From NCBI GenBank assembly GCA_032718475.1, contig JAUCBJ010008295.1, forward strand, positions 1 to 64,000: a stretch of DNA of 64,000 bases, read 5' to 3'. Below the pieces are notes generated by a model. That model did not search any database. It had not been told where the DNA came from and saw only the letters and a list, made by a program, of their open reading frames with translations. This stretch comes from Nemertoderma westbladi. Its lineage: Eukaryota > Animalia > Xenacoelomorpha. Below are positions 4,070-59,742 of the stretch, in pieces (position 1 is the stretch's first letter; each line of letters begins with the position of its first letter). The position numbers and the translations under genes are program-made.

Positions 4070-4082
4070 TATAAACTGTTAC
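4070..4082 (-). promoter_or_regulatory. Non-tRNA primer-binding site of E1, complementary to LTR segment 4823-4835
   Basis: Plus-strand TATAAACTGTTAC (4070-4082) is the exact reverse complement of GTAACAGTTTATA (4823-4835) and abuts the LTR end. Confidence 0.8.
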
Positions 4083-5316
4083 TGTTCGCGCTTTTGAAGA
4101 CCTTTAGCAGTTTAACCTGCCAAAATTTATATGTCTTTTTGTTAATTAAAACCACTTTAGCATACGACAATAATTTATGCTAATACGCAAAACACTAGCC
4201 GAAGTCAGCCCATGCGCGATCATTCACCCGATGGATCTACACCCGGGAGACTGAATTCGGATGCTTAAATTTTATTATTGCAGTGTAAGGTTGCAGTGTA
4301 TACCTACTGTATTATTCAATAGATCGTTAATGTTTAATCTCTGACAGATATTATTGGCTTTCGGGAAATATTAACAGTTCCTTTAGGGCGTGGCGCTTTA
4401 TCTATTTAAACAGAACTAAGACTTATACTAAAACACAACGATACTGCTTATGATTAAAGTATAAAGCGTATTCTTTAGGAAATACTTTGTTACCAATCAC
4501 AATCATACACACTATTCTGCCGACAGTCAGTATATTTGATCACACATAAAGAGAGCAGTAATTGACTCACGTAGGGTCTGCTAAATAACATTGGATTCAA
4601 TACACACCACATTAATATAAATCGCAATTGTTATGTATAACCGGTCTCTCTAACCTGTAGTGTATCAAGAAAATTGGGAATTTGGGTGATTTATCCGTAT
4701 TATCCAAAGAGCAATATTTCCATCAACAAATAGGTACAATTAATAACTGACGGTAAAATAACAGTACAAACAATATGATTAATGCAATTAAATTAAGTGA
4801 GTAGTTAAGATTAGTTAATGAGGTAACAGTTTATACTTTCGATAATTTAAGCAGTTTACTAGAGTTCTTCCCTAAAGGCCGGTGTTTCTGGCTTAGACAG
4901 CAATAACAACAAAGTATCAAGTAAGAACAGTAAGACTGAACACTCTCCTTATGATCGACTGAAAAGCTACACGTCGACAGGAAAAATCGCTCCGATTGGC
5001 TCAAGCCAAACAAAGAACCGTGCGTCCAATGGCTGTTTCCATGTCAGCAACCAGCTGTTAGATGTCGTAATATGAATCATCACGGCTAAGCTGTGAAAGG
5101 TAGTTGGTGCATTACAGGTTTTTTGCCTTACCATGTCCGCCAAAACACGTATATAGCAGAATGATTTTTATGTCCGTTAAAACACCTGTAAAGGTACCTT
5201 GCGGGCGAGGGGAATATATATACAGTTAGAGAACCTTTTTAGAGTATTCCAGCGCCTGTGGGGAAACTGGATTGCGAAGCAAAAGGGGCCAGTTATATCC
5301 CACAGAAGCTTTTACA
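4083..5316 (-). repeat. 5' LTR of E1 (1234 bp)
   Basis: TG...CA termini on the minus strand. The R/U5-side portion is homologous to the E2/E3 LTRs, while the U3-side portion is divergent. Confidence 0.85.
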
Positions 5317-16516: not shown

Positions 16517-17754
16517 TGTTCGCGCTTTCAGACCTTTGGCAGTTTAACCCGCCAAATTAGAATGTCTTCTAGATAATAAATCTGCTTTTTAGTCTATGAC
16601 AAGTATTTGATTCACTACACTAGTCGAAACCAATCCGTGCGCGACCATTCACCCGCTGGATATTCCCGGGAGATTGGGTTCGACGGTTTAATTTTTATTG
16701 CTATGTAAGCCTAATGTATTATTCGACTGACAGTATTATAATCTCTGACAATATTATTCACCTTCGGTAATATTAACAGTTCCTTTAGGACGTGGCGCTT
16801 TATCTATATAAACAGAGTTATGACTTAAACTACTCCCAACGATATGGCTTAATTATAATCCACATATATGACGCATTCTTTAGGAATTGCTTCTTTAACA
16901 GACTCACTCATACACTATGCTGCACAATACTGCACACTAATCTGCCAATCTTCACTGATTTTAGTCACATATAAAAGGAACACAGGCTGACTCATGTAGG
17001 GTCTATCAAATAACATTAGATTCACTTCAAACCACTTTAACATAAGTCACAATCGTTTATCTGTAACCCTTCTCTCTTACCTTCGGTATATCAAGAATAT
17101 TGGGTTTCGGGGTTGTTTATCGTTATTCCAAATATAATTATTCATCAACCATATTATGAAGAACTGACGGTAAATAGCAGTATAACAATATAAAAGTATG
17201 CACAATGTTACACAGTATGCAGTGTATGCAGTACTGCAGTATGCAGACATCAGTCATCAGTATGCAGTCCGTTTGTTAAAGGATATATGCCCTTTATAAT
17301 TAAACCTACTAGTGTACGACTAAAAAGCAGTACAGCACAAAATACTTCTAAGCCGTTCTTTCTTTGGCTCAAGACTGAATGTAAACACTGCACATAGGCA
17401 TTGCGTCATTTCTCGGAAATTTTCTGTACAAGGAGCCACAAAAACGCTCTCATTGGCTGACTGAACTGAGAGACGCCGTAGAACAAAGGAAATCAACACG
17501 TATGAATGTCAGCTGTTAACCGTAGTCATAGTAACTACTGTTCAAGAGTAGCTATCACCCCTTTGCGTCACGAATTGCCATAGAATCATAAAATATACCT
17601 TTCACAGTACACATACGGAGGAAATAGGTCTTAGATCCTCTAAAAACACCGATACAGCAATAATACGGTCTCTTACACTTATTAAATCAACTACAGAGTA
17701 TTTTAATGTAAAAGATAATAAAAATAACGGGGCAATTCAGCAAAGGCTTTTACA
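16517..17754 (-). repeat. 3' LTR of E2 (1238 bp)
   Basis: TG...CA termini, preceded on the minus strand by the purine tract GGGAGCGG (17755-17762). Confidence 0.92.
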
Positions 17755-29198: not shown

Positions 29199-29210
29199 TA
29201 TATCCTTTAA
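29199..29210 (-). promoter_or_regulatory. Non-tRNA primer-binding site of E2, complementary to LTR segment 29971-29982
   Basis: TATATCCTTTAA (29199-29210) is the reverse complement of TTAAAGGATATA (29971-29982) and abuts the LTR. Confidence 0.8.
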
Positions 29211-30447
29211 TGTTCGCGCTTTCAGACCTTTGGCAGTTTAACCCACCAAATTAAGATGTCTTCTAGATATTAAATCAGTTTTTAGTCTATGACAAGTATT
29301 TGATTCACTACACTAGTCGAAACCAATCCGTGCGCGACCATTCACCCGCTGGAGATTCCCGGGAGATTGGGTTCGACGGTTTAATTTTATTGCTATGTAA
29401 GCCTAATGTATTATTCGACTGACAGTATTATATAATCTCTGACAATATTATTCACCTTCGGTAATATTAACAGTTCCTTTAGGACGTGGCGCTTTATCTA
29501 TATAAACAGAGTTATGACTTAAACTACTCACAACGATATGGCTTAATTATAATTCACATATATGGCGCATTCTTTAGGAATTGCTTCTTTAACAGACTCA
29601 CTCATACACAATGCTGCACAATACTGCACACTAATCTGCCAATCTTCACTGATTTTAGTCACATATAAAAGGAACACAGACTGAATCATGTAGGGTCTAT
29701 CAAATAACATTAGATTCACTTCAAACCACTTTAACATAAGTCACAATCGTTATTGGTAACCTTTCTCTCTTACCTTCGGTATATCAAGAATATTGGGTTT
29801 CGGGGTTATTTATCGTTATTCCAAATATAATAATTCATCAACCATATTATGAAGAACTGACGGTAAATAGCAGTATAAAACAACAATGAAAACACTGATT
29901 GTTATGAGTTTGCAATGTTTCAGCAGTCAGTATGTATGATCAGTTAGCAGTGATTCCATGAGTCAGGTAGTTAAAGGATATATGTCCTTGTAATTAAACC
30001 TACTAGTGTAAGACTAAAAACAGTAAAGCACAAAATACTTCCAAGCCGTTCTTTCTTTGGCTCAGGACTGAATGTAAACACTGCACATAGGCATTGCGTC
30101 ATTTCTCGGAAATTTTCTGTACAAGGAGCCACAAAAACGCTCTAATTGGCTGACTGAACTGAGAGACGCCGTAGAACAAAGGAAATCAACACGTATGAAT
30201 GTCAGCTGTTAACCGTAGTCATAGTAACTACTGTTCAAGAGTAGCTATCACCCCTTTGCGTCACGAATTGCCATAGAATCATAAAATATGCCTTTCACAG
30301 TACACATACGGAGGAAATAGGTCTTAGATCCTCTAAAAACACCGATACAGCAATAATACGGTCTCTTACACTTATTAAATCAACTACAGAGTATTTTAAT
30401 GTAAAAGATAATAAAAATAACGGGGCAATTCAGCAAAGGCTTTTACA
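29211..30447 (-). repeat. 5' LTR of E2 (1237 bp)
   Basis: Homologous to 16517-17754, with TG...CA termini. Confidence 0.92.
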
Positions 30448-33190: not shown

Positions 33191-33580
33191 GTCTGCTAAT
33201 CCTGTAATCAGATAAACTTTATTTGTAATGCTGTACCGGTTACCGGTAGAGCAGTACTAGGTTTACTACTGTACAGTACTACAGAAGAGCGGTAATGCTG
33301 TAATGCTGTAATGCTAATGCAGTAATGTCTAAATACAGAAATACAGTCGACTGTTGACTGTAACTGGTAACTGTACCTGTGTACGACTGTAGCATTATAC
33401 CGATCCGGTAATATTACCGGTACTGGTACCAGGCACCAGGCAGCCAGGTACATATGTACATATTACTGTATTAATACAGTAATATCAGTATCAGATACTG
33501 AGATAGGCAGATAGGTGTCAGATTATAAATAAATACGGTAATTTAATTAGCCTACTGGTTAGCTGTAGGGTTATGCAGTT

Positions 33581-34366
33581 ATGGGTAAAGACAAGGACGT
33601 ATCCGTATTATTCCCCAGCGTGACTTCATTCCCGAAGACGAACCCAACATCGACATGCTCCACCCCGGGGCGTTACGGTGGCCGTATAGACCTGGGAACT
33701 ATAACCCAACACAATCTGCAGCAACTGAAACGACTCAACCAGGTGGTATTCCCGGTGGCCTATAACGAGAAGTTCTACATCGACGTTCTGCATGTTGGAG
33801 ACCTCGCCAAACTCGCCTACTTTAACGACATTGCAGTCGGCGCTGTTTGCTGTCGAATCGACACCTCCAACAACCAACGTCGTCTCTACATAATGACTCT
33901 GGGGTGTCTGGCGGCTTACCGTAATATGGGAATCGGTAAGGTGATGGTTGATCACGTGTTGAGTTTGTGTGAGACAGACGGGAAGATGGACGGCGTCTAC
34001 CTCCACGTGCAGATAAGCAACGATAGCGCGATCGAATTCTATAGACGGTTCGGGTTCGAGATAATCGATGTCCGCGAGAACTATTACAAGAGGATTGAGC
34101 CACCGGATGCTTATGTTCTACAGAAAACGTTGCGAGGGACCCCGCCCAAACCGTTGTCGTGGCCTAACAGGGTGGATAACGGGGTAGATGTGGATAGGGG
34201 GGGTGGGGTGGAGAACGGGATAGAGGGGGGCAGAGAGGGTGGAGTGGAGAATGGGAATGCCGATAACGTGGCAGAAGCACCCGTTACTCCGGTAGAGAAT
34301 GGTTTAGATAAATCGAACATCAGTGAACCGACTCTGACCGATAACTGCGTTGAATCAACTGATTAG
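33581..34366 (+). CDS. NAA50: N-alpha-acetyltransferase 50 (NatE catalytic subunit, San), intronless CDS
   Basis: RIDLGTITQHNLQQLKRLNQVVFPVAYNEKFY, LYIMTLGCLAAYR..GIG, YLHVQISNDSAIEFY..FGFEI and NYYKRIEP.DA are hallmark NAA50 GNAT motifs. Confidence 0.95.
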   Translation: MGKDKDVSVLFPSVTSFPKTNPTSTCSTPGRYGGRIDLGTITQHNLQQLKRLNQVVFPVAYNEKFYIDVLHVGDLAKLAYFNDIAVGAVCCRIDTSNNQRRLYIMTLGCLAAYRNMGIGKVMVDHVLSLCETDGKMDGVYLHVQISNDSAIEFYRRFGFEIIDVRENYYKRIEPPDAYVLQKTLRGTPPKPLSWPNRVDNGVDVDRGGGVENGIEGGREGGVENGNADNVAEAPVTPVENGLDKSNISEPTLTDNCVESTD

Positions 34367-37187: not shown

Positions 37188-40100
37188 GAATCACTTTTAT
37201 TTACACACTCAATCACTTTTATTTACACACTCAATCACTTTTATTTCCACACTCAATCACTTTTATTTACACAGTCAATCACTTTTATTTACACGCTCAA
37301 TCACTTTTATTTACACACTCAATCACTTGTATTTCCACACTCAATCACTTTTATTTACACACTCAATCACTTGTATTTCCACACTCAATCACTTTTATTT
37401 ACACACTCAATTACTTGTATTTCCACACTCAATCACTTTTATTTACACACTCAATCACTTTTATTTACACACTCAATCACTTTTATTTACACACTCAATC
37501 ACTTTTATTTACACACTCAATCACTTTTATTTACACACTCAATCACTTGTATTTACACACTCAATCACTTTTAGTTACACACTCAATCACTTGTATTTCC
37601 ACACTCAATCACTTTTATTTACACACTCAATCACTTGTATTTACACACTCAATCACTTGTATTTCCACACTCAATCACTTTTATTTACATACTCAATCAC
37701 TTTTATTTACACACTCAATCACTTTTATTTACACAGTCAATCACTTTTATTTACACACTCAATCACTTTTATTTACACACTCAATCACTTGTATTTCCAC
37801 ACTCAATCACTTTTATTTACACACTCAATCACTTTTATTTACACACTCAATCACTTTTATTTACACACTCAATCACTTGTATTTCCACACTCAATCACTT
37901 TTATTTACACACTCAATCACTTGTATTTCCACACTCAATCACTTTTATTTACACACTCAATCACTTTTATTTACACACTCAATCACTTTTATTTACACAC
38001 TCAATCACATTTATTTACACACTCAATCACTTGTATTTCCACACTCAATCACTTGTATTTCCACACTCAATCACTTTTATTTACACAGTCAATCACTTTT
38101 ATTTACACACTGAATCAGTTGTATTTCCACACTCAATCACTTTTATTTACATACTCAATCACTTTTATTTACACACTCAATCACTTTTATTTACACACTC
38201 AATCACTTGTATTTCCACACTCAATTACTTTTATTTACACACTCAATCACTTTTATTTACACACTCAATCACTTTTATTTACACACTCAATCACTTTTAT
38301 TTACACACTCAATCACTTTTATTTACACACTCAATCACTTTTATTTACACACTCAATCACTTGTATTTACACACTCAATCACTTTTAGTTACACACTCAA
38401 TCACTTGTATTTCCACACTCAATCACTTTTATTTACACACTCAATCACTTGTATTTACACACTCAATCACTTGTATTTCCACACTCAATCACTTTTATTT
38501 ACATACTCAATCACTTTTATTTACACACTCAATCACTTTTATTTACACAGTCAATCACTTTTATTTACACACTCAATCACTTTTATTTACACACTCAATC
38601 ACTTGTATTTCCACACTCAATCACTTTTATTTACACACTCAATCACTTTTATTTACACACTCAATCACTTGTATTTCCACACTCAATCACTTTTATTTAC
38701 ACACTCAATCACTTGTATTTCCACACTCAATCACTTTTATTTACACACTCAATCACTTTTATTTACACACTCAATCACTTTTATTTACACACTCAATCAC
38801 ATTTATTTACACACTCAATCACTTGTATTTCCACACTCAATCACTTGTATTTCCACACTCAATCACTTTTATTTACACAGTCAATCACTTTTATTTACAC
38901 ACTCAATCAGTTGTATTTCCACACTCAATCACTTTTATTTACATACTCAATCACTTTTATTTACACACTCAATCACTTTTATTTACACACTCAATCACTT
39001 GTATTTCCACACTCAATCACTTTTATTTACACACTCAATCACTTTTATTTACACACTCAATCACTTTTATTTACACACTCAATCACTTTTATTTACACAC
39101 TCAATCACTTGTATTTCCACACTCAATCACTTTTATTTACACACTCAATCACTTTTATTTACGCACTCAATCACTTGTATTTCCACACTCAATCACTTTT
39201 ATTTACACACTCAATCACATTTATTTACACACTCAATCACTTGTATTTCCACACTCAATCACTTTTATTTACACACTCAATTACTTGTATTTCCACACTC
39301 AATCACTTTTATTTACACACTCAATCACTTTTATTTACACACTCAATCACTTTTATTTACACACTCAATCACTTTTATTTACACACTCAATCACTTTTAT
39401 TTACACACCCAATCACTTGTATTTCCACACTCAATCACTTTTATTTACACACTCAATCACTTTTATTTACACACTCAATCACTTTTAGTTACACACTCAA
39501 TCACTTGTATTTCTACACTCAATCACTTTTATTTACACACTCAATCACTTGTATTTACACACTCAATCACTTGTATTTCCACACTCAATCACTTTTATTT
39601 ACATACTCAATCACTTTTATTTACACACTCAATCACTTTTATTTACACAGTCAATCACTTTTATTTACACACTCAATCACTTTTATTTACACACTCAATC
39701 ACTTGTATTTCCACACTCAATCACTTTTATTTACACACTCAATCACTTTTATTTACACACTCAATCACTTTTATTTACACACTCAATCACTTGTATTTCC
39801 ACACTCAATCACTTTTATTTACACACTCAATCACTTGTATTTCCACACTCAATCACTTTTATTTACACACTCAATCACTTTTATTTACACACTCAAATCA
39901 CTTTTATTTACACACTCAATCACATTTATTTACACACTCAATCACTTGTATTTCCACACTCAATCACTTGTATTTCCACACTCAATCACTTTTATTTACA
40001 CAGTCAATCACTTTTATTTACACACTCAATCACTTGTATTTCCACACTCAATCACTTTTATTTACATACTCAATCACTTTTATTTACACACTCAATCACT

Positions 40101-40224
40101 TTTATTTACACACTCAATCACTTGTATTTCCACACTCAATCACTTTTATTTACACACTCATTCACTTTTATTTACACACTCAATCACTTTTATTTACACA
40201 CTCAATCACTTTTATTTACACACT
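37188..40224. repeat. 22-bp satellite (AATCACTTTTATTTACACACTC), left arm
   Basis: Direct tandem periodicity, with variant units recurring in higher-order blocks. Confidence 0.98.
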
Positions 40225-41447
40225 TGTAAAAGCCTTTGCTGAATTGCCCCGTTATTTTTATTATCTTTTACATTAAAATACTCTGTAGTTGATTTAATAG
40301 GTGTAAGAGACCGTATTATTGCTGTATCGGTGTTTTTTAGAGGATCTAAGACCTATTTCCTCCGTATGTGTACTGTGAAAGGCATAGTTGATGATTCTAT
40401 GGCAATTCCATGACGCAAAGGGTGATAGCTACTCTTGAACAGTAGTTACTATGACTACGGTTAACAGCTGATATTCATACGTGTTGATTTTCTTTGTTCT
40501 ACGGCGTCTCTCAGTTCAGTCAGCCAATCAGAGCATTTTTATGGCTCTTGTAGAGAAATTTCCTAGAAATCACGTAATGCTTTATGGGCAGTGTTGACAT
40601 TCTGTCCTGAGCCAGGAGAGAGCGGCTTGGAAATATTTTGTGCTTTTCTGTTTTAGCTTAACACTAGTAGGCTTAATTATAAGGACATATATCCGTTATC
40701 AAACTAATGAACTAAACACACAACACTTAATATCTTACTGACACTGCTTACTGTGTAACACTGTGCATACTTTATATTGTTATACTGCTATTTACTGTCG
40801 GTCCTTCATAATATGGTTGATGAATTATTATATTTGGAATAACGATAAATAACCCCGAAACCCAATATTCTTGATATACCGAAGGTAAGAGAGAAAGGTT
40901 ACATATAACGATTGTGACTTATGTTAAAGTGGTTTGAAGTGAATCTAATGTTATTTGATAGACCCTACATGAGTCAGTCTGTGTTCCTTTTATATGTGAC
41001 TAAAATCAGTGAAGATCGGCAGATTAGTGTGCAGTATTGTGCAGCATTGTGTATGAGTGAGACTGATAACGAAGCATTTCCTAAAGAATGCGCCATATAT
41101 GTGAATTATAACTAAGCCATATCGTTGTGAGTAGTTTAAGTCATAACTCTGTTTTTATAGATAGAGCGCCACGTCCTAAAGGAACTGTTAATACTTCCCG
41201 AAGGTGAATAATATTGTCAGAGATTATATAATACTGTCAGTCGAATAATACATTAGGCTTACATAGCAATAAGATTAAGCCGTCGAACCCAATCTCCCGG
41301 GTATATCCAGCGGGTGAATGATCGCGCACAGATTGGTTTCGACTAGTGTAGTGAATTAAATACTTGTCATAGGTTAAAAGTGATTTATTATCTAGAAGAC
41401 ATCCTAATTTGGCGGGTTAAACTGCCAAAGGTCTGAAAGCGCGAACA
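40225..41447 (+). repeat. 5' LTR of E3
   Basis: TGTAAAAGCC...GCGCGAACA, a direct repeat of 55494-56716. Confidence 0.97.
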
Positions 41448-41458
41448 ATAACGGATAT
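41448..41458 (+). promoter_or_regulatory. Non-tRNA primer-binding site of E3, complementary to LTR segment 40689-40699
   Basis: ATAACGGATAT is the exact reverse complement of ATATCCGTTAT. There is no TGG-type tRNA PBS. Confidence 0.8.
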
Positions 41459-41814
41459 CTGCTTCTTTATTGCAGTAAGCAATAAAGTTGAAAGTACCGG
41501 TCAACCGGTAAACCTGAACGGTACATCTGTAGGTCAGTAGGCCCAACTGCCAGAACCGGTACTGCTGTAGGCCCGTAGGTCCAACTGCCAGAACCGGTAC
41601 TTCTGCAGGTCCGTAGGCCCAACTGTCCTAATCGGTACTTCCCGTATAAGTACATTAGTATTATTCGATTTGATTGTTGCATACCGGTAGGCTGTTTAAG
41701 AGATTAGGGACTGTACACCCCTTGTTTCTTTTGGAGCTTACTCATTTCTGTCAGTTTTATTTATTTGTAGGCCAGTATTGAACAGAAGGCGTGTAAGCCT
41801 GATCAGATTGTACA

Positions 41815-42345
41815 GACAATTTGTAGGGTGGATAGTTGTCTGATTGCTGTTAAGTCTGAACGGATTGCAGTGTGTGTAGATCACCTGTCCGATAAAGAAC
41901 GGTTAGGAAGTAGGGGCAGCCAATGCTGTAAGGTAAACCCCCAACTAAAGAATAAGTCGTACTACTGGGTTAGAACGCATACTACCTAATCATTTCGGAG
42001 TCTGCATGTCCTGTAGTTTATTTAGGCTTGAGAGTAGTCTGCCATCGTTTAGTCTGTACTTTGTTTGTGTAAGTCTGTACAGGTAGCGTATAATATTTAT
42101 TTATATAATTTGTAGGCTGGATAGTTGTCTGGCTGTTATTAGGTCTGAACGGATTGCAGTGTGTGTAGAGCCTCTGTCCGATAAAGAACGGTTAGGAAGT
42201 AGGGGCAGCCAATGCTGTAAGGTAAACCCCCAACTAAAGAATAAGTCGTACTACTGGGTTAGAACGCATACTACCTAATCATTTCGGAGTCTGCATGTCC
42301 TGTAGTTTATTTGGGCTTGATAGTAGCCTGTCAGTATTTGGTCTG
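41815..42345 (+). repeat. About 290-bp-period tandem duplication in the 5' leader
   Basis: Blocks starting at about 41817 and 42107 repeat. Equivalent duplications occur in E1 (about 3267/3553) and E2 (about 28370/28660). Confidence 0.85.
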
Positions 42346-43687
42346 CATTTTGTTTGAGTGGTTTGTACGCGTAGCGTAATATTTATTATTCAGAGTTTAT
42401 GCGATTATTCGCAACATTCATATCCCCAAGTTTGTTCCTACAATAATTGTGTTTGTTATACATACCGCTATAGTTAAATTAACCCCGGTACTACACGGGC
42501 TGCTTGGCGTAGGTAAAGACTGGTGATTTTGTGCACCGGTCACTCCAGCAGATGCCGTGGTTCTTTTAACTGTTCAAGTATATTTAACTACTGATTATAT
42601 GTTGTACAAGTACTCGTACCTAATTTAGGGTTTAGTGTACAGTGCTTTCCGAAAGTAATTAGTGTAGACATTATATTTGTGTTGTAAAGTGGTTAATAGG
42701 CACGTTCGATTAGCTCTATTAACTTCTAGGTAGGAACACTCCGTGATACATAACGTAGTACCTATAGCGATACGGCTATAGGTCGTCAGGCGGTGGTATT
42801 TTCCTATCTGGACAACGCAGTGTATTTACTACTACGTATTATTTTCAAATACCGCAGTACCCTGTCCGTTGTAATAACCAGAATTCTAACCCTTTGTTAG
42901 GCTGGTTTGTAGACTTCTTGTAAAATTACCCTAAAAATTTCGTATTTGTGTTTTTTGTAAATTTTTGTGTTTATTTAGAGATTGTAATCTCACCCGAATT
43001 GTACGTAATTTGTAGTATTAAGTAACTTAGGTAAATTAGCATTATTTGTTTTAGTGTCCTATAAGTAACACTTCACTAAAAGCGCACCGCTTTGTGTAGT
43101 GATTACTCCCCAGAAATAATAACACCCCATTAAAACGGGAATATATTTATTATAAATCAAATCTAACGATTTATAAATAGTAGGCCTACCATACAACCAT
43201 TAGGTCTCAATATCAGTTGGACTACTGCTCAAATAACGGTAATAAAGTAAGTAAAGTAACCAAGTAACCCTAAAATTCAGAAATTCAATTATTAAAAATA
43301 ATTGATATACCGGTATTTACGATAGGCCTATTATCTTTATTTCTATAAATTTCGGCTGAAATTATACCGGTACTTGTAATTAATTCTAGTCCAGAATTAT
43401 ATATACTACAAACTGTAAGCTGTATACCGGTATTCCCGATAGGCCTATTATATATTTATATATATTTGTGCTAAAATTATACCGGTATTCTGTGATAAAC
43501 CTAGTCTGTAATAATACTTATATAGTTATATATACTATAAGCATACCGGTATTCTAATATATTATATATATCACGCTACACTGAGTAGCAGTATCGGTAA
43601 TTAATTACTAGGCTAGCAGTTAATACTGAGTTACTAGACTTGCTCAGACTGTAATATAGCAGTAGGCATTCAACTGTACACATAAAC

Positions 43688-46600
43688 ATGTCTGATACTA
43701 AGCAGAACCTGTCAGACAGTTTATTAGATGTAACTATCTGCGACTCAGATAGAGACGTAGAACCGTCTGGTCGTAAGTTCAGTTCACCTCCCACTGTGAG
43801 GAAGGTCACCCCTCCAGGAGTAATAAGAGAACCTAGGCTGGTCCAACATCGTAGGTCTATCATAGGCACGCGAGCTCAGGTCAAGCGGAACCAAGAAGCA
43901 GCGGAACAGCGACAACCCGCGAGCCAAGAACTTATTTCTCAGCGGCCCGACAGCTCCAGTAGTGAAGATACTGCAGAACTGACACCCGAGCGCGGAGCAA
44001 GGATGACGGATGAGGCTTATTCAGATCCCCTTCTCATCCTTCCTGCAGCCGTACTCACTAGGTTATTGATCGCTGTGGAAGAACACCAGATCGATTGGGC
44101 GAGAAGCCAGCGTTCAACTAGAGATAGTTATGCTGGATACACAAGGGAAGAACTGAAGTCCATGGTCGAGTCACAATGGAACTTCCCCGGACCCGGACTC
44201 CCGTTTGATTTATCAGAAGCTGCCTGGGAAGACATACACCGGATGGGAGTAGCCAAGGAAACCATCGATCCAGCTGTGTGGAAGAGGTCCGCAGCCAGAT
44301 ACGCACAGGGATTCTTCAGCTCTATGGAGCGAGTAAAAGGACAACTGTTTCAACAACCACAAGGACCTCAAGAGCAGGGACAACTGCTTTATCAAGTTAG
44401 AGAAAGAATTCTGCGAATCAGGCTAATCTTATCAGCCTTTGAGGAGGCTTCTAAACGAAGACAAGACACGTCGTTGCAAGTTGCCGTAAAGACTTGGTTT
44501 CAACGGGTGAGTCTCCAGGTTCAAGGAACAGCTCAGTGGAAAGCTCAGCTGGAGGAGCGATCAACCCATGGAGAATCAACAGACGCTACTTTTTCCCAAG
44601 TGGAAAGTGAAGCGACGGCAGAGAAACCACATAAGAGGGATGCCATTGACATCTATCTGTCAGACTATCAACGTTTTTTAGGTGATGACGAGTTGAGGAG
44701 AAGGTTAGAGGGACTTAGCCCTAATAGTGAAGGAACCAAGCTTGTGTTGGATGCCATCGATGTGGAAATGAGGGCTGCGAATCAGGCTAAATTTGATGAA
44801 CAACTCCGCATCACACGAGTCCAAGAAGAACAAGTAAAGAAAAAACGTATAGAAGACAGAAAGAAAGCAGCAGTGGTAGCTGCAGAAGCAGAAAGAAAAG
44901 CGGCAGCGGCAGAGGCAGCGGCAGAGGCAAAAGTGGCAGAAGCAGAACGGAACGCGGCTGAAGAAATCACCCAATTAGAATTGGAAAACATTCAGGAGAA
45001 TCAAGACTGCATAAATAAACAGTTAACAGCTAGTAATATGCAGATGATGAATCGATCTACTCCCAAAAGACAGGGATATACATCATCTGAAGAAGGCGAT
45101 ACCACCGATACTGAAGGCAAAGGAAATAGATCTCGTCTAAGCAGACGTAAAAGAACATTCCACCGTCAGAAATTGCCTGATTTGCCTCCAGCTGTTAGAA
45201 GGCAACTTAATAACACCAACTTAGGTAGTACAGAGCCCACAGACCAAATAATTAAAATAGAAAGACTCCCTACTATAGTAGATGAGCCTGAAATAATTAG
45301 GCCTGTTCTTGAAATCACCCCTTCTGTGATAGACACACCTGTACTCCCTGAACCTACCTCTCAATTCCCGTTGCACAGCACTAAGCTACCTGTGCCCAGT
45401 AGAACAGCCCATGAGACAGTTCATGCTCTGGACTCCGAGCGGAATGTTCATGATTTGTCGCCTGTTGTCCCTCGTCCGCCCGCTACAACGTTGGCGGATC
45501 CCGTTTCGGCGGTTGATTGGGTGGACGAGAGACGGCGGGGGATGGACATTCTCCTCGGAAAGATGGAGGAGAATCAAAGGCGCTCCTCCCAACAGGTCCG
45601 AGAGTTAGAAGGGACTGTTCAACAGTTAAAGGGAACCGTAAAGGAAAGTAGGTTAGAGTTGCAGGAAGTGCAGCAAAATATCGCGTTGGAACGCGATAAA
45701 TTAGTAAATTTACAAAAGGGTATACTACCACCCCTTGTAACAATGTGTCAACCTGTTAGGTCTGAAGTATCTCATGCGCAAGGTGTGGAGCCTACACGCA
45801 TCTATACTGCTAGCGAAGTAGAAACTCCTATAGTGAACCCTATTAAGGGTAATTATAGACCTGTTGATAATGATATTCCATATAGAACGGATCATAATCC
45901 GAGAAATTTATATACCGATAACTCGATATTAAATAACACGATGGCCCAAGAAAGTTTTACGCGTCAAATGGCTAGAACCGAAGCCCGGCAAGCGGTAAAG
46001 GTGGGAGAGATCGTCAAGTTCAATGGAGATGAGATGAAATGGTTACCTTTTAATGAATATTACAAAGATAACATACAGAACTCTGTACTATCTAATGGAG
46101 AAAAACTTAGATACCTCATCGAGTGCTTGGAAGGATCTCCCAAGTTAATGGCGTTAAAGTTTATTGGACATCCAGACGGATTAAGACAAGTTTGGGATAC
46201 ACTAAACATCAGGTATGGTAATAGGAATAACATCGCTGGGTATTTGTATGCAAAGTTGGTAGCGCCCCGAAAGTTTATTAGCAGCGGGATTATCGAGTTT
46301 TCCGATGAGATCCAGGAGATCTGCAGACAATTAGATTGGCTAGGTAAGTCTCATGAGTATCAGAACACTATGGTTATTAGAGCAGTAGCTTCTACTTTAC
46401 CGAAGGGTGGAGTAGGCACACGCTGGGATAAGAAAGTGTTATATATGATGGAACAACAACGACGAGACCCTACCATGGCTGATCTCATGTCATTCCTAGA
46501 TGGAGAAGTGAAATTACAGCTCCTGAAACTGTCCAGAGAGAAGACACCGGATAACAAGGTAAGTGAAAAACCCGTCTCTAGGAGAAAGGTAACACCAGTG

Positions 46601-47950
46601 TGTTATACAGACGACGGCGAAAGCCAGACTTCTCAAGGAGAAGATAGCGGGAAGGACACTGAGAGATCTTATTACGTAAATAAAATGCCTAAAGATCAGG
46701 TAAGTAAATTCAAGTCTCGAACAAATGACAGGAGAGAACAGGTAAGAAAAACTCCTCCTACGTCTCCCAAGAGAATTCAGGTGAGAAAGCCCGAAGAAAA
46801 GGCAAGTGTGCACAATGTGACTCAGATTAAGGTGAGTAACATCAAACCAAAATGTGCGCTATGTGATGGGACCCATCGCTTGAATATGTGTGATGAATTT
46901 CTAAAGAAATCATTAACTGAGAGACGTGAAGTCATGTGGGATAAGCGGTTATGTTATAATTGCCTCAGACCAGGACACCAAAGGCGAACCTGTTATTCTG
47001 ACATAAAATGTGCAAAGTGTGGTGCGAAACATCATATCTTGTTGCACGCTGAATTCGATCGAAATAGTCCTAATCAGGTAAGTGATTCCGAACTACATGT
47101 CCAATTCAGTGATGTGAACGACACTGATCAATCTGAGATGGAAGGATTCTATACGGACGAGTTCTCCGACGAAAACGAATCCTGTTACATGATAAATACC
47201 GCAGTGTATCGAGCACTCACATATGAAAAAGATACAGACAGCGACTTCACTCTAACTACTTCTGAGCGACAACCATCGTGGAAAGCACCAACTTCCAATG
47301 TAGGAATCCGAGAATTTCCTGTAGTCCAGTTACGGGTCCATGGACCTCAGAAGAGCTATATAGTGAACGCCCTCCTGGACTCCGGCAGCACAGGAACATT
47401 CATTGATAAAGAACTAGCCGAAGACATCTTCGCTGGACAACCTAAGTTCCGAACCAAGCTAAATATGTCAGGCATTATGCAAGTTTGGAAATCTACAGTA
47501 ACAGCTGATTATTATGTAGGCGCGTTGTCCACCCCACAAGACAAACTAGGAGAACATAGCATAAGGTCAGTGAAATTGGTGGCTATAAAGAACTTCGCTA
47601 CTACTCAAGCAGACCTTTATAATTGGGACGAGGATGAGAGCATCCAACATCTTAAGATACCTCGATTCCAGACTGATTATCCTGGAGTGCAAATACTCCT
47701 CGGCCAAAACGCGCATGAGGCGCTGGAGACATTGGAGAAACGGCCTGCTCAACCGCAGCCACTACAGACCTATGCGGTAAGAACTAGAGTAGGTTGGTAC
47801 TTTACTGGCCCTTCCCGTAGAACACTCAGAGAAAGACTACCGCAAGAGCGCGTCTACCAGGTGAGTGAATGGGAAGATGATACTAGTGAGGGAGACGATT
47901 TAACTGAGGGAACCCCATACTCCTCAGATAACGACGACGTGCACCATTGA
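43688..47950 (+). CDS. gag: BEL/Pao Gag-protease polyprotein (1420 aa)
   Basis: DUF1759-like region (KFNGDEMKWLPF...EKLRYLIECLEG), the BEL triple knuckle (CALCDGTHRLNMC, CYNCLRPGHQRRTC, CAKCGAKHHILLH) and protease ALLDSGS. Confidence 0.95.
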   Translation: MSDTKQNLSDSLLDVTICDSDRDVEPSGRKFSSPPTVRKVTPPGVIREPRLVQHRRSIIGTRAQVKRNQEAAEQRQPASQELISQRPDSSSSEDTAELTPERGARMTDEAYSDPLLILPAAVLTRLLIAVEEHQIDWARSQRSTRDSYAGYTREELKSMVESQWNFPGPGLPFDLSEAAWEDIHRMGVAKETIDPAVWKRSAARYAQGFFSSMERVKGQLFQQPQGPQEQGQLLYQVRERILRIRLILSAFEEASKRRQDTSLQVAVKTWFQRVSLQVQGTAQWKAQLEERSTHGESTDATFSQVESEATAEKPHKRDAIDIYLSDYQRFLGDDELRRRLEGLSPNSEGTKLVLDAIDVEMRAANQAKFDEQLRITRVQEEQVKKKRIEDRKKAAVVAAEAERKAAAAEAAAEAKVAEAERNAAEEITQLELENIQENQDCINKQLTASNMQMMNRSTPKRQGYTSSEEGDTTDTEGKGNRSRLSRRKRTFHRQKLPDLPPAVRRQLNNTNLGSTEPTDQIIKIERLPTIVDEPEIIRPVLEITPSVIDTPVLPEPTSQFPLHSTKLPVPSRTAHETVHALDSERNVHDLSPVVPRPPATTLADPVSAVDWVDERRRGMDILLGKMEENQRRSSQQVRELEGTVQQLKGTVKESRLELQEVQQNIALERDKLVNLQKGILPPLVTMCQPVRSEVSHAQGVEPTRIYTASEVETPIVNPIKGNYRPVDNDIPYRTDHNPRNLYTDNSILNNTMAQESFTRQMARTEARQAVKVGEIVKFNGDEMKWLPFNEYYKDNIQNSVLSNGEKLRYLIECLEGSPKLMALKFIGHPDGLRQVWDTLNIRYGNRNNIAGYLYAKLVAPRKFISSGIIEFSDEIQEICRQLDWLGKSHEYQNTMVIRAVASTLPKGGVGTRWDKKVLYMMEQQRRDPTMADLMSFLDGEVKLQLLKLSREKTPDNKVSEKPVSRRKVTPVCYTDDGESQTSQGEDSGKDTERSYYVNKMPKDQVSKFKSRTNDRREQVRKTPPTSPKRIQVRKPEEKASVHNVTQIKVSNIKPKCALCDGTHRLNMCDEFLKKSLTERREVMWDKRLCYNCLRPGHQRRTCYSDIKCAKCGAKHHILLHAEFDRNSPNQVSDSELHVQFSDVNDTDQSEMEGFYTDEFSDENESCYMINTAVYRALTYEKDTDSDFTLTTSERQPSWKAPTSNVGIREFPVVQLRVHGPQKSYIVNALLDSGSTGTFIDKELAEDIFAGQPKFRTKLNMSGIMQVWKSTVTADYYVGALSTPQDKLGEHSIRSVKLVAIKNFATTQADLYNWDEDESIQHLKIPRFQTDYPGVQILLGQNAHEALETLEKRPAQPQPLQTYAVRTRVGWYFTGPSRRTLRERLPQERVYQVSEWEDDTSEGDDLTEGTPYSSDNDDVHH

Positions 47951-50786
47951 GGTCGCTAAAGGAACGGTAGAGTGCTTAAAAAGAGGTGGGTTTCGATTAA
48001 CGAAATTCACCAGCAACTCCCGTGAGTTTCTGGAGTCGATCCCTGCGGAAGATCGAGGGGCGAAAGATCTAGATTTGATCAAAGATGATCTGCCAGAAAC
48101 CAAGACACTCGGCTTGAAATGGGACACAGAGCGAGATATCCTGTTTTTCCAGCTAAAACAGCGAGATAATCCAGTTCGAACCAAACGGATTTGCTTAAGT
48201 ATACTGAGCACTTATTTCGATCCATTGGGATTTATTAGTCCAGTTATCTTGATTGCTCGTAGTTTGGTACATCAAATGTGGCTTGAAAACCACTCATGGG
48301 ACGATCCACTTAAGGGAGAATTATTGAAGAAGTGGATGAAATGGGAAGATTCTCTGCCGGCTATCGAGGATTTTATAATTTCCCGTTCATATTTTGGTCA
48401 TGTTCTCCCTACGTATTCCTATCAACTCCATGTGTTTGGAGACGCCAGCGATATGGGAATAGGTATAGTAGCCTATCTAAGAGTGGAAACTCCGGATGGA
48501 ATCAAAGTTGCCTTGGTTACTTCTAAGGCATTAATCAACAACAAGTTGAAAGTTCCTCGAGCGGAGTTAAAAGCGGCTCTATACGCTACAGCCATCGGCC
48601 GGAATGTAACAGAACAGATTGACTATCCATTAGAGAAAACTGTCTATTGGACCGACGCTTTACTCGTGTTAGAGTATATAACCAATGAAGTCTGTCAGTT
48701 CAGCGTCTTCGTTACCAACAGAGTAGCCATCATACTTAGTCGCACGACGATGGACCAATGGAGACATTGCCCCGGAACGATTAATCCAGCAGACATCGCC
48801 TCCCGAGGAGCGACTCCCAAGGAATTGGTAAATACTCCCGAATGGTTAGGTGGACCCGACTTTCTCTACAAAGAAGAAGAAGAATGGCCTCCCCATCTCA
48901 CAACAGCAGAGATCAGACAGGCCAAGGGAGCGGAGAAAGTTAAACCCAAAACTCGAGCGAGTAAATCGAAGTTGTTTAAACCTGCGGTTGATCTATCTGT
49001 ATTATTTACTTCCGGAGAGGATGCTTTGGATCAGAAACCCACCGCCACGACTAAAGAAGTCTTGGAAATCCGTGACAAGGATTGGAAATCTGGAATACCA
49101 GATATCGCGCAAGGACTCTCACCCCTCCTGCAGAGAGTGATACGTCATTACAGTTCCTGGAATCGGCTCTGTAAAGCCGTCACCTATTTAAAACGATGTT
49201 TTCATCATCGTTACTCCGGGACAAAGACCAATAGTGATGATGCTCCATCAACATCTGCACGAGTCCATGTTGTTAAAGATCTTCCCCAATACAAGATATC
49301 CGACAGGTTTCTAAAGGAGAAGATCAGTTACCAGGAGCATGATGAAACCAACAAACAGATGCTGAGACTCCTACAATGCTATGAGGATCCCGATAAGTAT
49401 TTCCTGTTGTTAAGAAATCCGCAGATGCACTTAAGGGATCGCTTCTCTAGTACCATGATAGATGGGTTAATACGTGTTGGAGGCAGGCTCACCAACGCCC
49501 CATTATCCTTTGACACTAAATTTCCCATACTCATTAGAAATCTTGACATACAAATCAAGATGATTGTGGATGTTCATAGCAAACTGTATCATGCTGGAAG
49601 AGAACGAGTTCTGAGCGAAATTCGAACTCGCTACTATTTTTATAAACCCCGTAGGGCTCTGAACCAAGTCCTTAGGAACTGCATACCCTGTAGGAAAGCA
49701 TTCAGTAGGCCTTTGACACAGCGAGAGGCAGAATTACCTAGGGAAAGAGTAAGCTTCTACGAACCACCCTTTACTAATACCGGTGTGGATTTATTTGGCC
49801 CTATTGAAGTATATCGTGCCCGGACTATAGTCAAGAGATGGTGTGTCATCTTCGTTTGTATGACTTGTAGAGCTATCCATCTCGATATGGTAAACGATCT
49901 ATCCACCAACAGCTTCGTGTTGAGTTTACGACGACAGATCGCTCGCTTCGGAACCAGTAACACGATGAGATCGGATAAGGGAACGAACTTCATTGGCGCC
50001 AACAACGAAATTCAAGCTTACGTAAAGGACTGGAACAAAAGACAGGTGGACGATCAGCTAAGGATAACAGCGTCTAGCTGGACCTTCAACGCCGCCGACG
50101 CCCCTTGGTGGGGAGGAAGTTGGGAGAGATTGATTAGGAGCGTGAAGACTGCGTTCCACTTTATTGTGCCTTGTCGCGCTTATCTCACCGACGAACTATT
50201 GCGGACGTTAATGGAGGAAATCGCCGCCTATCTCAACGAAAGACCGCTTATGCCAGTCTCTTCAAGTCCTGATTCCCTGGAAGCGCTAACACCCGCGCAC
50301 TTTCTACTGAAGAAACCCGTAGCCATGCTCCCACGATCGGAGATCACAGACGGAGACGAGTACTGCCGTCGAACCTGGCAACTTATGCAGTTGCTATCCC
50401 GTCGTTTCGCTGACCATTTCGAGAAACATTACCTGCCCACTCTACAACTTCGAACTAAGTGGTTTGCGCAGCAAGAAAACGTCAGCGCTGGAGACATGGT
50501 GCTTATTGTGGACCCCGATCTCCCACGTAAGCGATGGCAAACAGGACGTATCATCGAGACTCATATCTCGAGCTATGGTTTGGTGCGATCAGTAGAACTC
50601 GTCGTCATGCGGCGTAACTTTAAGAAACCAGGGATAGTCTTTGAGACTCAACAGCTCAATCGCCCAGTGGGTCGTTTATGTTTACTGGAAAGAGACAGAG
50701 AGCTCTCCGGAAACTATGGAAGGCAAGAAACTCTTCCCACGACCACTTCCCTAATCCAACCGACATCTAGGGACTCCCCAACTTAA
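47943..50786 (+). CDS. pol: Pol remnant: RT C-terminal tail, RNase H and integrase (out of frame with gag-PR, RT catalytic core missing)
   Basis: GGFRLTKFTSNS and KTLGLKW (RT end). LHVFGDAS, PRAEL, YWTDA and NPADIASRG (RNase H). H..LYHAG...CIPC, GVDLFGP, SDKGTNF and GGSWERL (integrase HHCC and DDE). Confidence 0.92.
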   Translation, partial: TIEVAKGTVECLKRGGFRLTKFTSNSREFLESIPAEDRGAKDLDLIKDDLPETKTLGLKWDTERDILFFQLKQRDNPVRTKRICLSILSTYFDPLGFISPVILIARSLVHQMWLENHSWDDPLKGELLKKWMKWEDSLPAIEDFIISRSYFGHVLPTYSYQLHVFGDASDMGIGIVAYLRVETPDGIKVALVTSKALINNKLKVPRAELKAALYATAIGRNVTEQIDYPLEKTVYWTDALLVLEYITNEVCQFSVFVTNRVAIILSRTTMDQWRHCPGTINPADIASRGATPKELVNTPEWLGGPDFLYKEEEEWPPHLTTAEIRQAKGAEKVKPKTRASKSKLFKPAVDLSVLFTSGEDALDQKPTATTKEVLEIRDKDWKSGIPDIAQGLSPLLQRVIRHYSSWNRLCKAVTYLKRCFHHRYSGTKTNSDDAPSTSARVHVVKDLPQYKISDRFLKEKISYQEHDETNKQMLRLLQCYEDPDKYFLLLRNPQMHLRDRFSSTMIDGLIRVGGRLTNAPLSFDTKFPILIRNLDIQIKMIVDVHSKLYHAGRERVLSEIRTRYYFYKPRRALNQVLRNCIPCRKAFSRPLTQREAELPRERVSFYEPPFTNTGVDLFGPIEVYRARTIVKRWCVIFVCMTCRAIHLDMVNDLSTNSFVLSLRRQIARFGTSNTMRSDKGTNFIGANNEIQAYVKDWNKRQVDDQLRITASSWTFNAADAPWWGGSWERLIRSVKTAFHFIVPCRAYLTDELLRTLMEEIAAYLNERPLMPVSSSPDSLEALTPAHFLLKKPVAMLPRSEITDGDEYCRRTWQLMQLLSRRFADHFEKHYLPTLQLRTKWFAQQENVSAGDMVLIVDPDLPRKRWQTGRIIETHISSYGLVRSVELVVMRRNFKKPGIVFETQQLNRPVGRLCLLERDRELSGNYGRQETLPTTTSLIQPTSRDSPT

Positions 50787-53639: not shown

Positions 53640-55415
53640 ATGGAGAACATTCCATACCCTTTCGTTGATACTCAGCTGATTGCTCCTTGGGCCGAAGGCC
53701 GAGGTTTCTTTCGCACTATGTATGCCAATACACCCAGCGACATTACTAAAGTACAACGGACATCCATCGGACATCTTGCCTTTCAAGAATATGGATGGAA
53801 CTTCAAAGTTGGAAATCCTATCAATTACCAGCAGGTATATGGAGATCATTACTCTCGTTTATATTTTGATGGACCATTAACTGCGCCTGGTGCCGTATAT
53901 AGCTTTATGAGTGTTCCACTTCGCCCTTCCTTAGCTATATACACGATCTTTGAAAACGCAGCACTTGCCGGTTGGCTAGCCGATGTGTGCAGTCGTACCA
54001 TACGCGCTCATCCCTTAATACTTGGAACTAAACTCGCCAAGTTAGACGAACACAATAAGTTCATACGTTTCGAATGTTTCCGGCGCTTTCTGACTCCGTT
54101 CCGTAACGTTGATAGTCAGTTCAAGGACCGCGCGCTGACCAAACTCAGTCTGAGAGACTAAGCTGCGGAGAAACTGAGTAGCGCTGGATTTGCCGTGTTT
54201 CAAGACGTTTGTATACAGAACTTACATTCATCTGTTATACAAAGACCCCGAATACCTACAGGTTATTCTGTCGTGGAAATACAGACAGTGGATCCACTTA
54301 CTGAGACAGACGCACCCACTTCGTCTATACAGCTGGAGGATGAACCAGTGTGCTTGGAATCAGAAGCGATTCAGCCTACAACTTCCCGGAGCAGTGACAA
54401 TGATTATGTCATAGAGTGGTATCAAGGTCCACAGCGTCTCACAGCGTACGATTATCGACACGCCAACTACGTTTCTCGAAAACGTTGTCGATTATGCGCA
54501 TCGAGAGACCACTTCACTCCTCTAGACTCGAGCGTACCTTGTTCCTATTTCCTCGAACAACCGATGATGGAAATATATTGTGATTATTGCCGGCTTAATA
54601 ACTCCCATATATTTGCCGTCTGCCCACAATTTATGACTCAATGTCACTACTGTCAACTTAAAGGACATGAAAGTTACAATTGTCCCTTTAATCGCGATTT
54701 AGAGAGCGTAGACGAGATGATCACCCTGCGATACATCCGAGCTTGGGAAGCGAACGCAGATTTACATTGCGAATCCCGACATCGCTATTACCCTGGACGA
54801 GCTTACGAGGGAGTTTACGCGTTCCATCCTTATCTATTCGCGTCGATTGAACAGAAAACACGCGTACCAAGTTACGAGTTAATGAAGCGTGTTGGTGAGT
54901 GTATTTCCACCAAGTTTGTCAGGAAATACCTTAGAAACGTTAACCCTAATGATATAACCACATATCACCTGATCAATTTTATCCGTCAGGACCCTGAGTA
55001 TGGCGACATCTTTGTGAACTCGCATCCTGAACTACAGGAAATATCTCGGCGACCATATGAATATCGAACCCGAGAACGCGAGCTGGAGAGAACCATTAAA
55101 CCGAGAAAGTTCCTCACCACTCACGGTCCACCCGCCGCTAGTGTCCAGACGACCCGTCAAGGACCCGTAGGAGCTGCTGTCCTGAGACGCGCTCTAAAGG
55201 CCGTTAGACCTCGCTCCACTGAGGTTGATATTAATCAACCAGGTACTTCGACCGGCGGGTATACCGATCGTAACCCTACACCTTCTGATGCAATTGTATT
55301 GCACCCTTCGCCTCGGAGCTACAGCCCTCCTCGTAAAGTGGCTCGCCCCAAAGAGAAAAGGACTCTTGCTGGACTCGGGAAACTGCGTAAACGCCGTCCG
55401 CGTAAGAAAGACTAA
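53640..55415 (+). CDS. 3' accessory Cys/His zinc-knuckle protein with a basic C-terminus, split by one in-frame TAA at 54159-54161
   Basis: ORFs 53640-54161 and 54195-55415 are in the same frame and the frame is open between them. Motifs are CRLCASRDH, CDYCRLNNSHIFAVC and CHYCQLKGHESYNC, and the protein ends KLRKRRPRKKD. Confidence 0.7.
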
Positions 55416-55485
55416 CTGTTTAGAGTATCTTTAGGTTTTAGAAACTGTGATTTTTGTATTTTATAGACTGAAAATCCCATTTTCT

Positions 55486-55493
55486 GGGAGCGG
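55486..55493 (+). promoter_or_regulatory. Polypurine tract
   Basis: GGGAGCGG directly abuts the 3' LTR and is identical in E2. Confidence 0.75.
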
Positions 55494-56716
55494 TGTAAAA
55501 GCCTTTGCTGAATTGCCCCGTTATTTTTATTATCTTTTACATTAAAATACTCTGTAGTTGATTTAATAGGTGTAAGAGACCGTATTATTGCTGTATCGGT
55601 GTTTTTTAGAGGATCTAAGACCTATTTCCTCCGTATGTGTACTGTGAAAGGCATAGTTGATGATTCTATGGCAATTCCATGACGCAAAGGGTGATAGCTA
55701 CTCTTGAACAGTAGTTACTATGACTACGGTTAACAGCTGATATTCATACGTGTTGATTTTCTTTGTTCTACGGCGTCTCTCAGTTCAGTCAGCCAATCAG
55801 AGCATTTTTATGGCTCTTGTAGAGAAATTTCCTAGAAATCACGTAATGCTTTATGGGCAGTGTTGACATTCTGTCCTGAGCCAGGAGAGAGCGGCTTGGA
55901 AATATTTTGTGCTTTTCTGTTTTAGCTTAACACTAGTAGGCTTAATTATAAGGACATATATCCGTTATCAAACTAATGAACTAAACACACAACACTTAAT
56001 ATCTTACTGACACTGCATACTGTGTAACACTGTGCATACTTTATATTGTTATACTGCTATTTACTGTCGGTCCTTCATAATATGGTTGATGAATTATTAT
56101 ATTTGGAATAACGATAAATAACCCCGAAACCCAATATTCTTGATATACCGAAGGTAAGAGAGAAAGGTTACATATAACGATTGTGACTTATGTTAAAGTG
56201 GTTTGAAGTGAATCTAATGTTATTTGATAGACCCTACATGAGTCAGTCTGTGTTCCTTTTATATGTGACTAAAATCAGTGAAGATCGGCAGATTAGTGTG
56301 CAGTATTGTGCAGCATTGTGTATGAGTGAGACTGATAACGAAGCATTTCCTAAAGAATGCGCCATATATGTGAATTATAACTAAGCCATATCGTTGTGAG
56401 TAGTTTAAGTCATAACTCTGTTTTTATAGATAGAGCGCCACGTCCTAAAGGAACTGTTAATACTTCCCGAAGGTGAATAATATTGTCAGAGATTATATAA
56501 TACTGTCAGTCGAATAATACATTAGGCTTACATAGCAATAAGATTAAGCCGTCGAACCCAATCTCCCGGGTATATCCAGCGGGTGAATGATCGCGCACAG
56601 ATTGGTTTCGACTAGTGTAGTGAATTAAATACTTGTCATAGGCTAAAAGTGATTTATTATCTAGAAGACATCCTAATTTGGCGGGTTAAACTGCCAAAGG
56701 TCTGAAAGCGCGAACA
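55494..56716 (+). repeat. 3' LTR of E3
   Basis: Direct repeat of 40225-41447. Confidence 0.97.
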
Positions 56717-59700: not shown

Positions 59701-59742
59701 GTATTTCCACACTCAATCACTTTTATTTACACACTCAATCAC
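56717..59742. repeat. 22-bp satellite, right arm
   Basis: Same unit as 37188-40224, resuming in phase after the TSD. Confidence 0.98.

Follow-up and report, generated by a model that had tools for sequence, protein, structure and literature searches.

Tf1-type priming is described, in the accessible passages of PMC7175516, PMC10085805, PMC4600332 and PMC5341516, for Tf1, Tf2, Tj1 and Tosmo of the Tf1/sushi group of Ty3/gypsy chromoviruses. Self-priming has also been predicted for the plant TAR (Houba, Osr-1) Ty1/copia and the Tcn1 lineages, according to the available part of PMC6317226. For BEL/Pao elements (Belpaoviridae, Semotivirus) the ICTV profile (PMC8742986) states tRNA priming, in agreement with the initial annotation of the DNA studied here, and calls replication poorly understood. 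Our literature search found no report of BEL/Pao self-priming; subscription papers, GyDB and Repbase lay outside its reach, and early BEL papers may bear on the question. A term search of the available main text of the BEL/Pao surveys PMC554778, PMC3118150 and PMC6238403 gave no mention of PBS or tRNA, and the passages seen of PMC6934838, PMC3601003, PMC13524379, PMC8220671 and PMC9094657 have no bearing on the subject.

Three BEL/Pao elements and their primer-binding sites

The window (the whole stretch of DNA analysed, 64,000 nucleotides) contains three related elements, E1, E2 and E3 (Table 1). Their assignment to BEL/Pao (Belpaoviridae), made initially from the sequence, is upheld by Pao-specific Pfam families and by long relatives. 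E3 encodes DUF1759, Peptidase_A17, Integrase_H2C2 and DUF5641, which are Pao-type gag and pol domains, and a search with its RNase H-integrase ORF gave 182 long relatives, with 35% identity for the best (120 of the 182 listed); sea urchin, tunicates, coral, oyster, sponge, fish and insects are named among the matches listed. The BEL/Pao structural features of TG...CA LTR ends, a purine tract and a target-site duplication (TSD) are all present in E3, whereas the 18-nt PBS complementary to a host tRNA 3' end, also a BEL/Pao criterion, is absent from E1-E3. Pfam detected no chromodomain in E3, which sets it apart from the Ty3/gypsy chromoviruses of the Tf1/sushi group.

Table 1. Window positions of the features discussed
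Feature	Position	Strand	Remarks
E1 primer-binding site	4070..4082	-	13 nt
E1 5' LTR	4083..5316	-	73-76% to E2/E3; segment 4823-4835
E2-associated 3' LTR	16517..17754	-	identical segment at 17276-17287
E2 primer-binding site	29199..29210	-	12 nt
E2 5' LTR	29211..30447	-	segment 29971-29982
E3 5' LTR	40225..41447	+	TG...CA, 1223 bp
CCAAT box	40524..40529	+	precedes the segment by 164-169 nt in each copy
Inr-like hexamer position	40601..40607	+	intact in E2 (-87), altered in E3; presumed motif, candidate rival start
E3 candidate self-primer segment	40689..40699	+	11 nt, perfect complement of the PBS
Conserved C (40700), then hypervariable tract	40700..40780	+	predicted cut site and minus-strand strong-stop end
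Poly(A) signal position	41266..41273	+	canonical in E1 and E2, with one deviating base in E3; putative R end just downstream
U5 duplex, 5' arm	41322..41327	+	pairs with 41439-41444; invariant
U5 hairpin	41408..41429	+	8 bp; pairs maintained via G-U changes in E1 and E2
U5 duplex, 3' arm	41439..41444	+	ends 3 nt before the PBS
E3 primer-binding site	41448..41458	+	no tRNA complement at its start, no spacer
Leader hairpin	41464..41488	+	9-10 bp, immediately past the PBS; E1 carries one compensatory and E2 one G-U change
E3 gag-protease ORF	43655..47950	+	DUF1759, zinc knuckle-like motifs; Asp protease weak
E3 RT thumb-RNase H-integrase ORF	47904..50786	+	Peptidase_A17, Integrase_H2C2, DUF5641
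E3 additional Cys/His-rich ORF	54162..55415	+	417 aa, ahead of the 3' LTR
E3 purine-rich tract	55482..55493	+	precedes the 3' LTR
E3 3' LTR	55494..56716	+	second segment copy at 55958-55968

E3 is a young copy, with LTRs that differ by 2 mismatches against 1221 identities (99.8%) and a 5-bp TSD (40220-40224/56717-56721). Several details of the initial annotation are corrected here: the last base of the E3 5' LTR is 41447, the RT core is missing from E3, and the E2 LTRs are 96% alike, with no matching TSD. Comparison with two full-length relatives gave no match to the RT core in E3, the deletion lying between the gag-protease and RNase H-integrase ORFs, and the RNase H region is an open frame; E3 would therefore have been mobilised in trans, and it has retained the paired site nonetheless. 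The E2 LTR pair is 96.2% identical without gaps and diverges directly past the segment, most of pol is missing, and a TSD sought at both LTRs was not found. The 80 nt after the segment differ between the two E2 LTRs, the 3' one being partly E3-like. E2 is possibly a recombinant, given this divergent tract and the unmatched TSD. The E2 and E3 LTRs are 93% identical. Only the 5' part of E1 lies within the window, its 3' LTR falling outside; the LTR ends of E3 and E2 are fixed independently by their LTR pairs and that of E1 (4083) by homology with E2/E3.

The surroundings are rich in satellites, which may reflect targeting or tolerated insertion: E3 is embedded in a 22-bp array (37189-40224, 56717-59742) and the E1 5' LTR adjoins a 13-bp array (5333-7492). 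The 2.2-kb leader contains 38-bp and 289-bp tandem repeats (41519-41641, 41818-42387) common to E1, E2 and E3. The 417-aa ORF of E3 matched no Pfam family and gave only weak zinc-knuckle-like look-alikes, with all atlas matches under 0.9. Elsewhere in the window, an intronless GNAT acetyltransferase ORF (33569-34366), presumably NAA50-like, lies between satellites and is possibly a retrocopy. Two mobile-element-like fragments without a Pfam match are an RT tail with a GIY-YIG-like end (61687-63321), which we take to be Penelope-like, and an RT-associated zinc-binding fragment (7653-8582).

The six segment and PBS strings reported initially were all present at their coordinates. Neither a TGG start nor a spacer was found after the terminal CA of E1, E2 or E3, so the claim that no TGG-starting tRNA PBS follows the 5' LTR holds for all three; a search of the 64-kb window found no tRNA gene, and Rfam gave no match within 40225-41800. 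Instead, the post-LTR bases pair perfectly with a segment of the element's own LTR over 13 (E1), 12 (E2) and 11 nt (E3), beginning, as initially described, at the first base after the LTR. The segments occupy homologous LTR positions (nt 482, 466 and 465 in E1, E2 and E3), lie 740-760 nt from the PBS, and have a copy in the 3' LTRs of E2 and E3 as well. The post-LTR prefix finds a longest perfect complement of just 5-7 nt in the LTRs of the other elements. In 20,000 first-order Markov resamplings per LTR, a match at least as long as the observed one arose 3 times for E1, 3 for E2 and 13 for E3. When 450 positions surrounding the LTR end were compared in each element, the longest match was the one beginning exactly at the first post-LTR base. 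Predicted duplex energies are -12 to -15 kcal/mol for cognate pairs vs. -1 to -7 kcal/mol for non-cognate ones.

Between E2 and E3, 2 of 11 segment positions have changed, and so have exactly the 2 PBS positions that pair with them, confirming the two compensated changes noted before; hand arithmetic puts the chance of such matched changes at ~1/55 x 1/9 = 0.002. This covariation may be a product of plus-strand synthesis, in which the primer would be copied into the PBS, and not of selection on pairing. Either cause, copying or selection, points to the segment as primer.

Variants in contigs of public runs, drawn from at most four samples of which one possibly has the same source as the window, show that the E1-E3 family is present in many forms. 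Within 41448-41458, the sole substitutions listed are the two E2-type changes, which account for a third to half of the summed depth in X1-X3, and each of the two main PBS types is present in contigs from three samples. Among loose ends, two X3 contigs carry an E2-type site with a 13th base that lengthens the pairing by one, and a fourth PBS type belongs to the E1-like subfamily, no LTR partner for it being visible in the contigs. One low-depth LTR variant has a single segment change with no matched PBS change listed, which counts weakly against self-priming.

Self-pairing among metagenomic relatives

A pol-alignment search of metagenome contigs gave at least 600 pattern matches, of which 365 were confirmed and the best 80 loci kept; the 49 with leader sequence were scanned, the 31 without leader being left out. 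A blind scan for reverse-complement matches of at least 11 nt, starting 0-3 nt after ACA or ATA and with a contiguous or spliced partner, found 15 of 49 loci, compared with 1/49 and 3/49 in complement-only and reverse-only controls; 27 of the 49 fell in no class. On curation, three doubtful loci (L035, L051, L056) were dropped, L005, L013 and L061 were recognised as twins of L009, L012 and L060, and a relaxed pass contributed L007 and L034, giving 11 self-pairing families. Two of these pair contiguously (L010, L045), and nine pair only across a GT-AG joint (L002, L006, L007, L009, L012, L021, L034, L060, L075). Where the 3' LTR sets the LTR end (L002, L010, L012, L060), the match begins 2-3 nt after it, and the duplex lies within 0-4 nt of the LTR end in 14/14 cases. 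The LTRs of L010 (911), L012 (91) and L005 (183) end in TA, not CA.

Sites and LTRs were compared with one another in a cross-matrix. With their own LTR, all 14 self-pairing cases reach 10-13 nt on the diagonal vs. 2-6 nt for the 4/4 loci with a tRNA site; 7 of the 11 relatives had been chosen because of their match, which limits how far the diagonal counts. Of 306 off-diagonal cells, 7 score 10 or more, and six of these 7 involve three loci with a common PBS. At least 11 different PBS texts occur among the self-pairing cases. Five loci (L043, L055, L059, L062, L080) carry a TGG tRNA-type site, a presumed label based on TGG 0-4 nt after CA and on known tRNA ends.

The spliced relatives bear on the stage at which pairing occurs. 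L005 lacks exactly the intron carried by its 90%-identical twin L009; it could represent a spliced transcript or else a copy without the intron. A terminal repeat of L005 (1-113, 7094-7206) starts 17 nt before the paired segment (L009: 693-8083). Pairing that exists only across the splice joint in nine families, together with the L005/L009 pair, argues that pairing is an event of the RNA. The intron is kept in both LTRs of L009 and L060, where both LTRs were seen, and its retention in the LTR DNA speaks for the 5' RNA copy as the source of the partner. In the nine spliced relatives the segment ends 5-7 nt past the 3' splice site. A similar junction exists in L014, for which the available DNA yielded no partner.

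Splicing does not seem to build the segment of E1-E3, which is one uninterrupted stretch and pairs in full as it stands. Motifs resembling intron donors and acceptors do lie within the LTR, 3' of the segment (40885-40961, homologous in E1 and E2), as a candidate intron only, and further donor-like sites occur at LTR nt 901-1100.

A 63-row pol tree separates the tRNA loci from the self-pairing loci and E3 at 0.94-0.96. A 17-row maximum-likelihood tree of labelled rows only gives the same tRNA/self split moderate support (83.3/80), with E3 as a long branch beside the other self-pairing loci; both trees lack an outgroup and are unrooted as to the direction of change. The DNA pattern of the E1-E3 LTR end had no match in the metagenomes, and the pol alignment found no relative among viral contigs. 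Self-pairing appears to mark a broad BEL/Pao clade, mostly with a splice-junction partner, and not the E1-E3 family alone. The initial proposal of tRNA-independent priming from the RNA of the element itself has good support in the sequences and in the relatives; the lineage to which it assigned self-priming should be widened to a large BEL/Pao clade.

RNA anatomy and candidate primers

The junction 3' of the segment has distinctive features. A C follows the segment directly in 13/14 cases and PBS position 2 is T in 14/14, counts that represent about 8 independent lineages. Among three close LTR copies, 2 of 11 segment columns differ vs. 72 columns in 40700-40780, and the next 120 nt past 40780 have 6 differing columns. 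In the public-run contigs, joints and one loose end begin at 40696-40700, and all four runs show a collapse of depth across 40720-40751. Strand-transfer errors at the end of strong-stop DNA would yield such hypervariability, and its onset one base past the segment, behind the conserved C, suggests a template 5' end near 40700, through a cut or a start. A pyrimidine-purine step at the duplex 5' end occurs exactly in 4/14 cases and at 0 or +1 in 12/14, a post hoc count. Cap copying, sought as a C after the PBS complement, was rejected, with 2 of 12 distinct curated PBSs and no excess (L051 and L056 excluded).

Downstream, the canonical poly(A) signal of E1 and E2 lies ~180-190 nt before the LTR end, which would make R long, about 600 nt. 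In each of the three copies the U5 duplex (41322-41327/41439-41444) ranks first among the pairings of the U5 end (-12.1 kcal/mol). For the leader-side duplex of the Tf1 'pretzel', the best LTR partner differs among copies and a local hairpin competes.

Our preferred reading, at a probability of roughly 0.6, is Tf1-like self-priming in which the first 11-13 nt of the element RNA serve as primer; that the primer derives from the element's own RNA in some geometry is highly probable. Transcription would start no more than about 10 nt from 40689, and the RNA 5' end would pair with the PBS next to the U5 duplex and leader hairpin. RT-RNase H, given in trans by an autonomous partner, would cut after the segment (40699/40700), and RT would extend the primer into U5. 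Strong-stop DNA would end at ~40700 and then jump to the 3' R, which is predicted to end near 41290. Copying of the primer into the PBS in plus-strand synthesis, in line with the general LTR scheme (the accessible part of PMC7175516), would hold the two in step.

Where the RNA starts, a point on which promoter motifs and folding disagree, decides between this reading and two others. A start at the segment is favoured by the constant duplex length of 10-13 nt, like a primer running out, by a TATA box 31 nt before the duplex in L002, and by folding, which forms the duplex only with an RNA 5' end near the segment: it is kept if the RNA starts within 10 nt of the segment (E2, E3) or at it (E1), is lost from -70 on, and has a probability of at most 0.02 with a start at -87. 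These values shift with the 3' end chosen (0.42 vs. 1.0 in E2, 0.83 vs. 0.58 in E1), and a terminal segment always meets fewer competitors. The promoter motifs would also allow a start ~85 nt upstream of the segment. In that case transcription would begin ~85-100 nt upstream (near 40603), and the cut at 40699/40700 would free a capped fragment of ~100 nt whose last 11-13 nt pair. The CCAAT box at -165 precedes a hexamer that we take to be Inr-like (-87 in E2, -102 in E1) by about 80 nt (E2) or 60 nt (E1), no TATA was found at -30 in E1-E3, and L060 has a TATA 135 nt and L021 an Inr 27 nt before the duplex. Moreover, priming with only the first 11-13 nt requires a first exon of 4-8 nt in the spliced relatives, which is unusually short. 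We nevertheless regard this longer primer as unlikely: the Inr-like motif is altered in E3, the youngest copy, the folding values and the L002 TATA box speak against it, and complementarity that stops at 10-13 nt in 14/14 cases would need a stop signal. Highly improbable is a segment located in U3 or at the R end, with a start at ~40700 and a primer taken from the 3' end of a co-packaged RNA by an internal cut or at the poly(A) site. A start at 40700 would suit the TATA-like text that the segment overlaps (the E1 segment opens with a TATA hexamer) and the purine after the conserved C in 10/14 cases, and the hypervariable tract suits any template 5' end, cut or capped. The poly(A) signals of E1 and E2, however, lie far downstream, and the base adjoining the duplex is T in 2/8 spacer-bearing relatives, hence no poly(A) pairing. 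The position of the segment just past the 3' splice site in nine relatives also weighs against it, as an intron spliced from a copied 3' LTR would vanish, yet it is kept in LTR DNA.

The remaining explanations dispense with a self-derived primer. The duplex could be a structural switch for packaging, dimerisation or site masking, with priming by other means, for instance by a protein or a fragment of a host RNA. Other conserved hairpins do flank the PBS, but the duplex stays 0-4 nt from the LTR end in every case, where it replaces the tRNA site of five relatives, and the 11 or more PBS texts would each require a host RNA of their own, which makes this account improbable. Chance or an assembly artefact, which the short AT-rich strings and the repeats of the window might suggest, has a negligible probability: it is refuted by the resampling null, the blind-scan controls and the cross-matrix, and both main PBS types recur in contigs from three samples.

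We put about even odds on a broader account built on the favoured self-priming, in which a marine BEL/Pao branch gave up tRNA priming for a self-primer, the capped RNA end cut at a conserved site. Most members would splice a micro-exon across an LTR intron, host splicing acting as a switch for reverse transcription, and the family in the window would be intron-free, its primer and PBS drifting freely as one is copied into the other.

Significance and comparison with known systems

The sequence signature of tRNA-independent priming in this BEL/Pao branch is real and well-controlled. If the mechanism is as proposed, self-priming, shown only for Tf1, would reach a third LTR superfamily; the branch would presumably be independent of host tRNA supply and of silencing by 3'-tRNA fragments; and the failure of PBS finders on many marine BEL/Pao copies would be explained. 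Exact predictions follow from the proposal: the RNA should begin near 40689, a cut end should lie at 40700, and strong-stop cDNA should carry 11-13 nt of element-derived RNA.

Within BEL/Pao, the C. elegans element Cer7 (BEL) is said to have been proposed to use an element-encoded tRNA-like primer, a proposal that our literature search did not find. It would resemble the present case in that a BEL element provides its own primer, and would differ in that the tRNA-like sequence lies elsewhere in Cer7 and is not an LTR segment. E3 shares with Belpaoviridae/Semotivirus (PMC8742986) the 1.2-kb LTRs, the gag-PR-(RT)-RH-IN order, the purine tract, the Pao-specific Pfam families and the 5-bp TSD, and E1-E3 depart from the tRNA-primed description of that profile in having no tRNA-type PBS. 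Like the TAR and Tcn1 predictions, they represent self-priming deduced from sequence outside Tf1, which can arise more than once; those lineages belong to other superfamilies, and the survey does not extend to BEL/Pao in the available part (PMC6317226).

The closest parallel is with the Tf1 group, as far as the accessible passages on it go. E1-E3 share with it the absence of a tRNA site, a PBS right after the LTR CA with ~11 nt complementary to an LTR segment, and a U5 duplex beside the PBS. Unlike the Tf1 group, they have BEL/Pao proteins, no Pfam chromodomain and a gap of 740-760 nt between segment and PBS, and their RNA start and cleavage are predicted from sequence. On the leader side they have a local hairpin in place of a position-conserved third duplex like that of the Tf1 'pretzel', and most self-pairing BEL/Pao relatives, again unlike the Tf1 group, assemble the segment through splicing.
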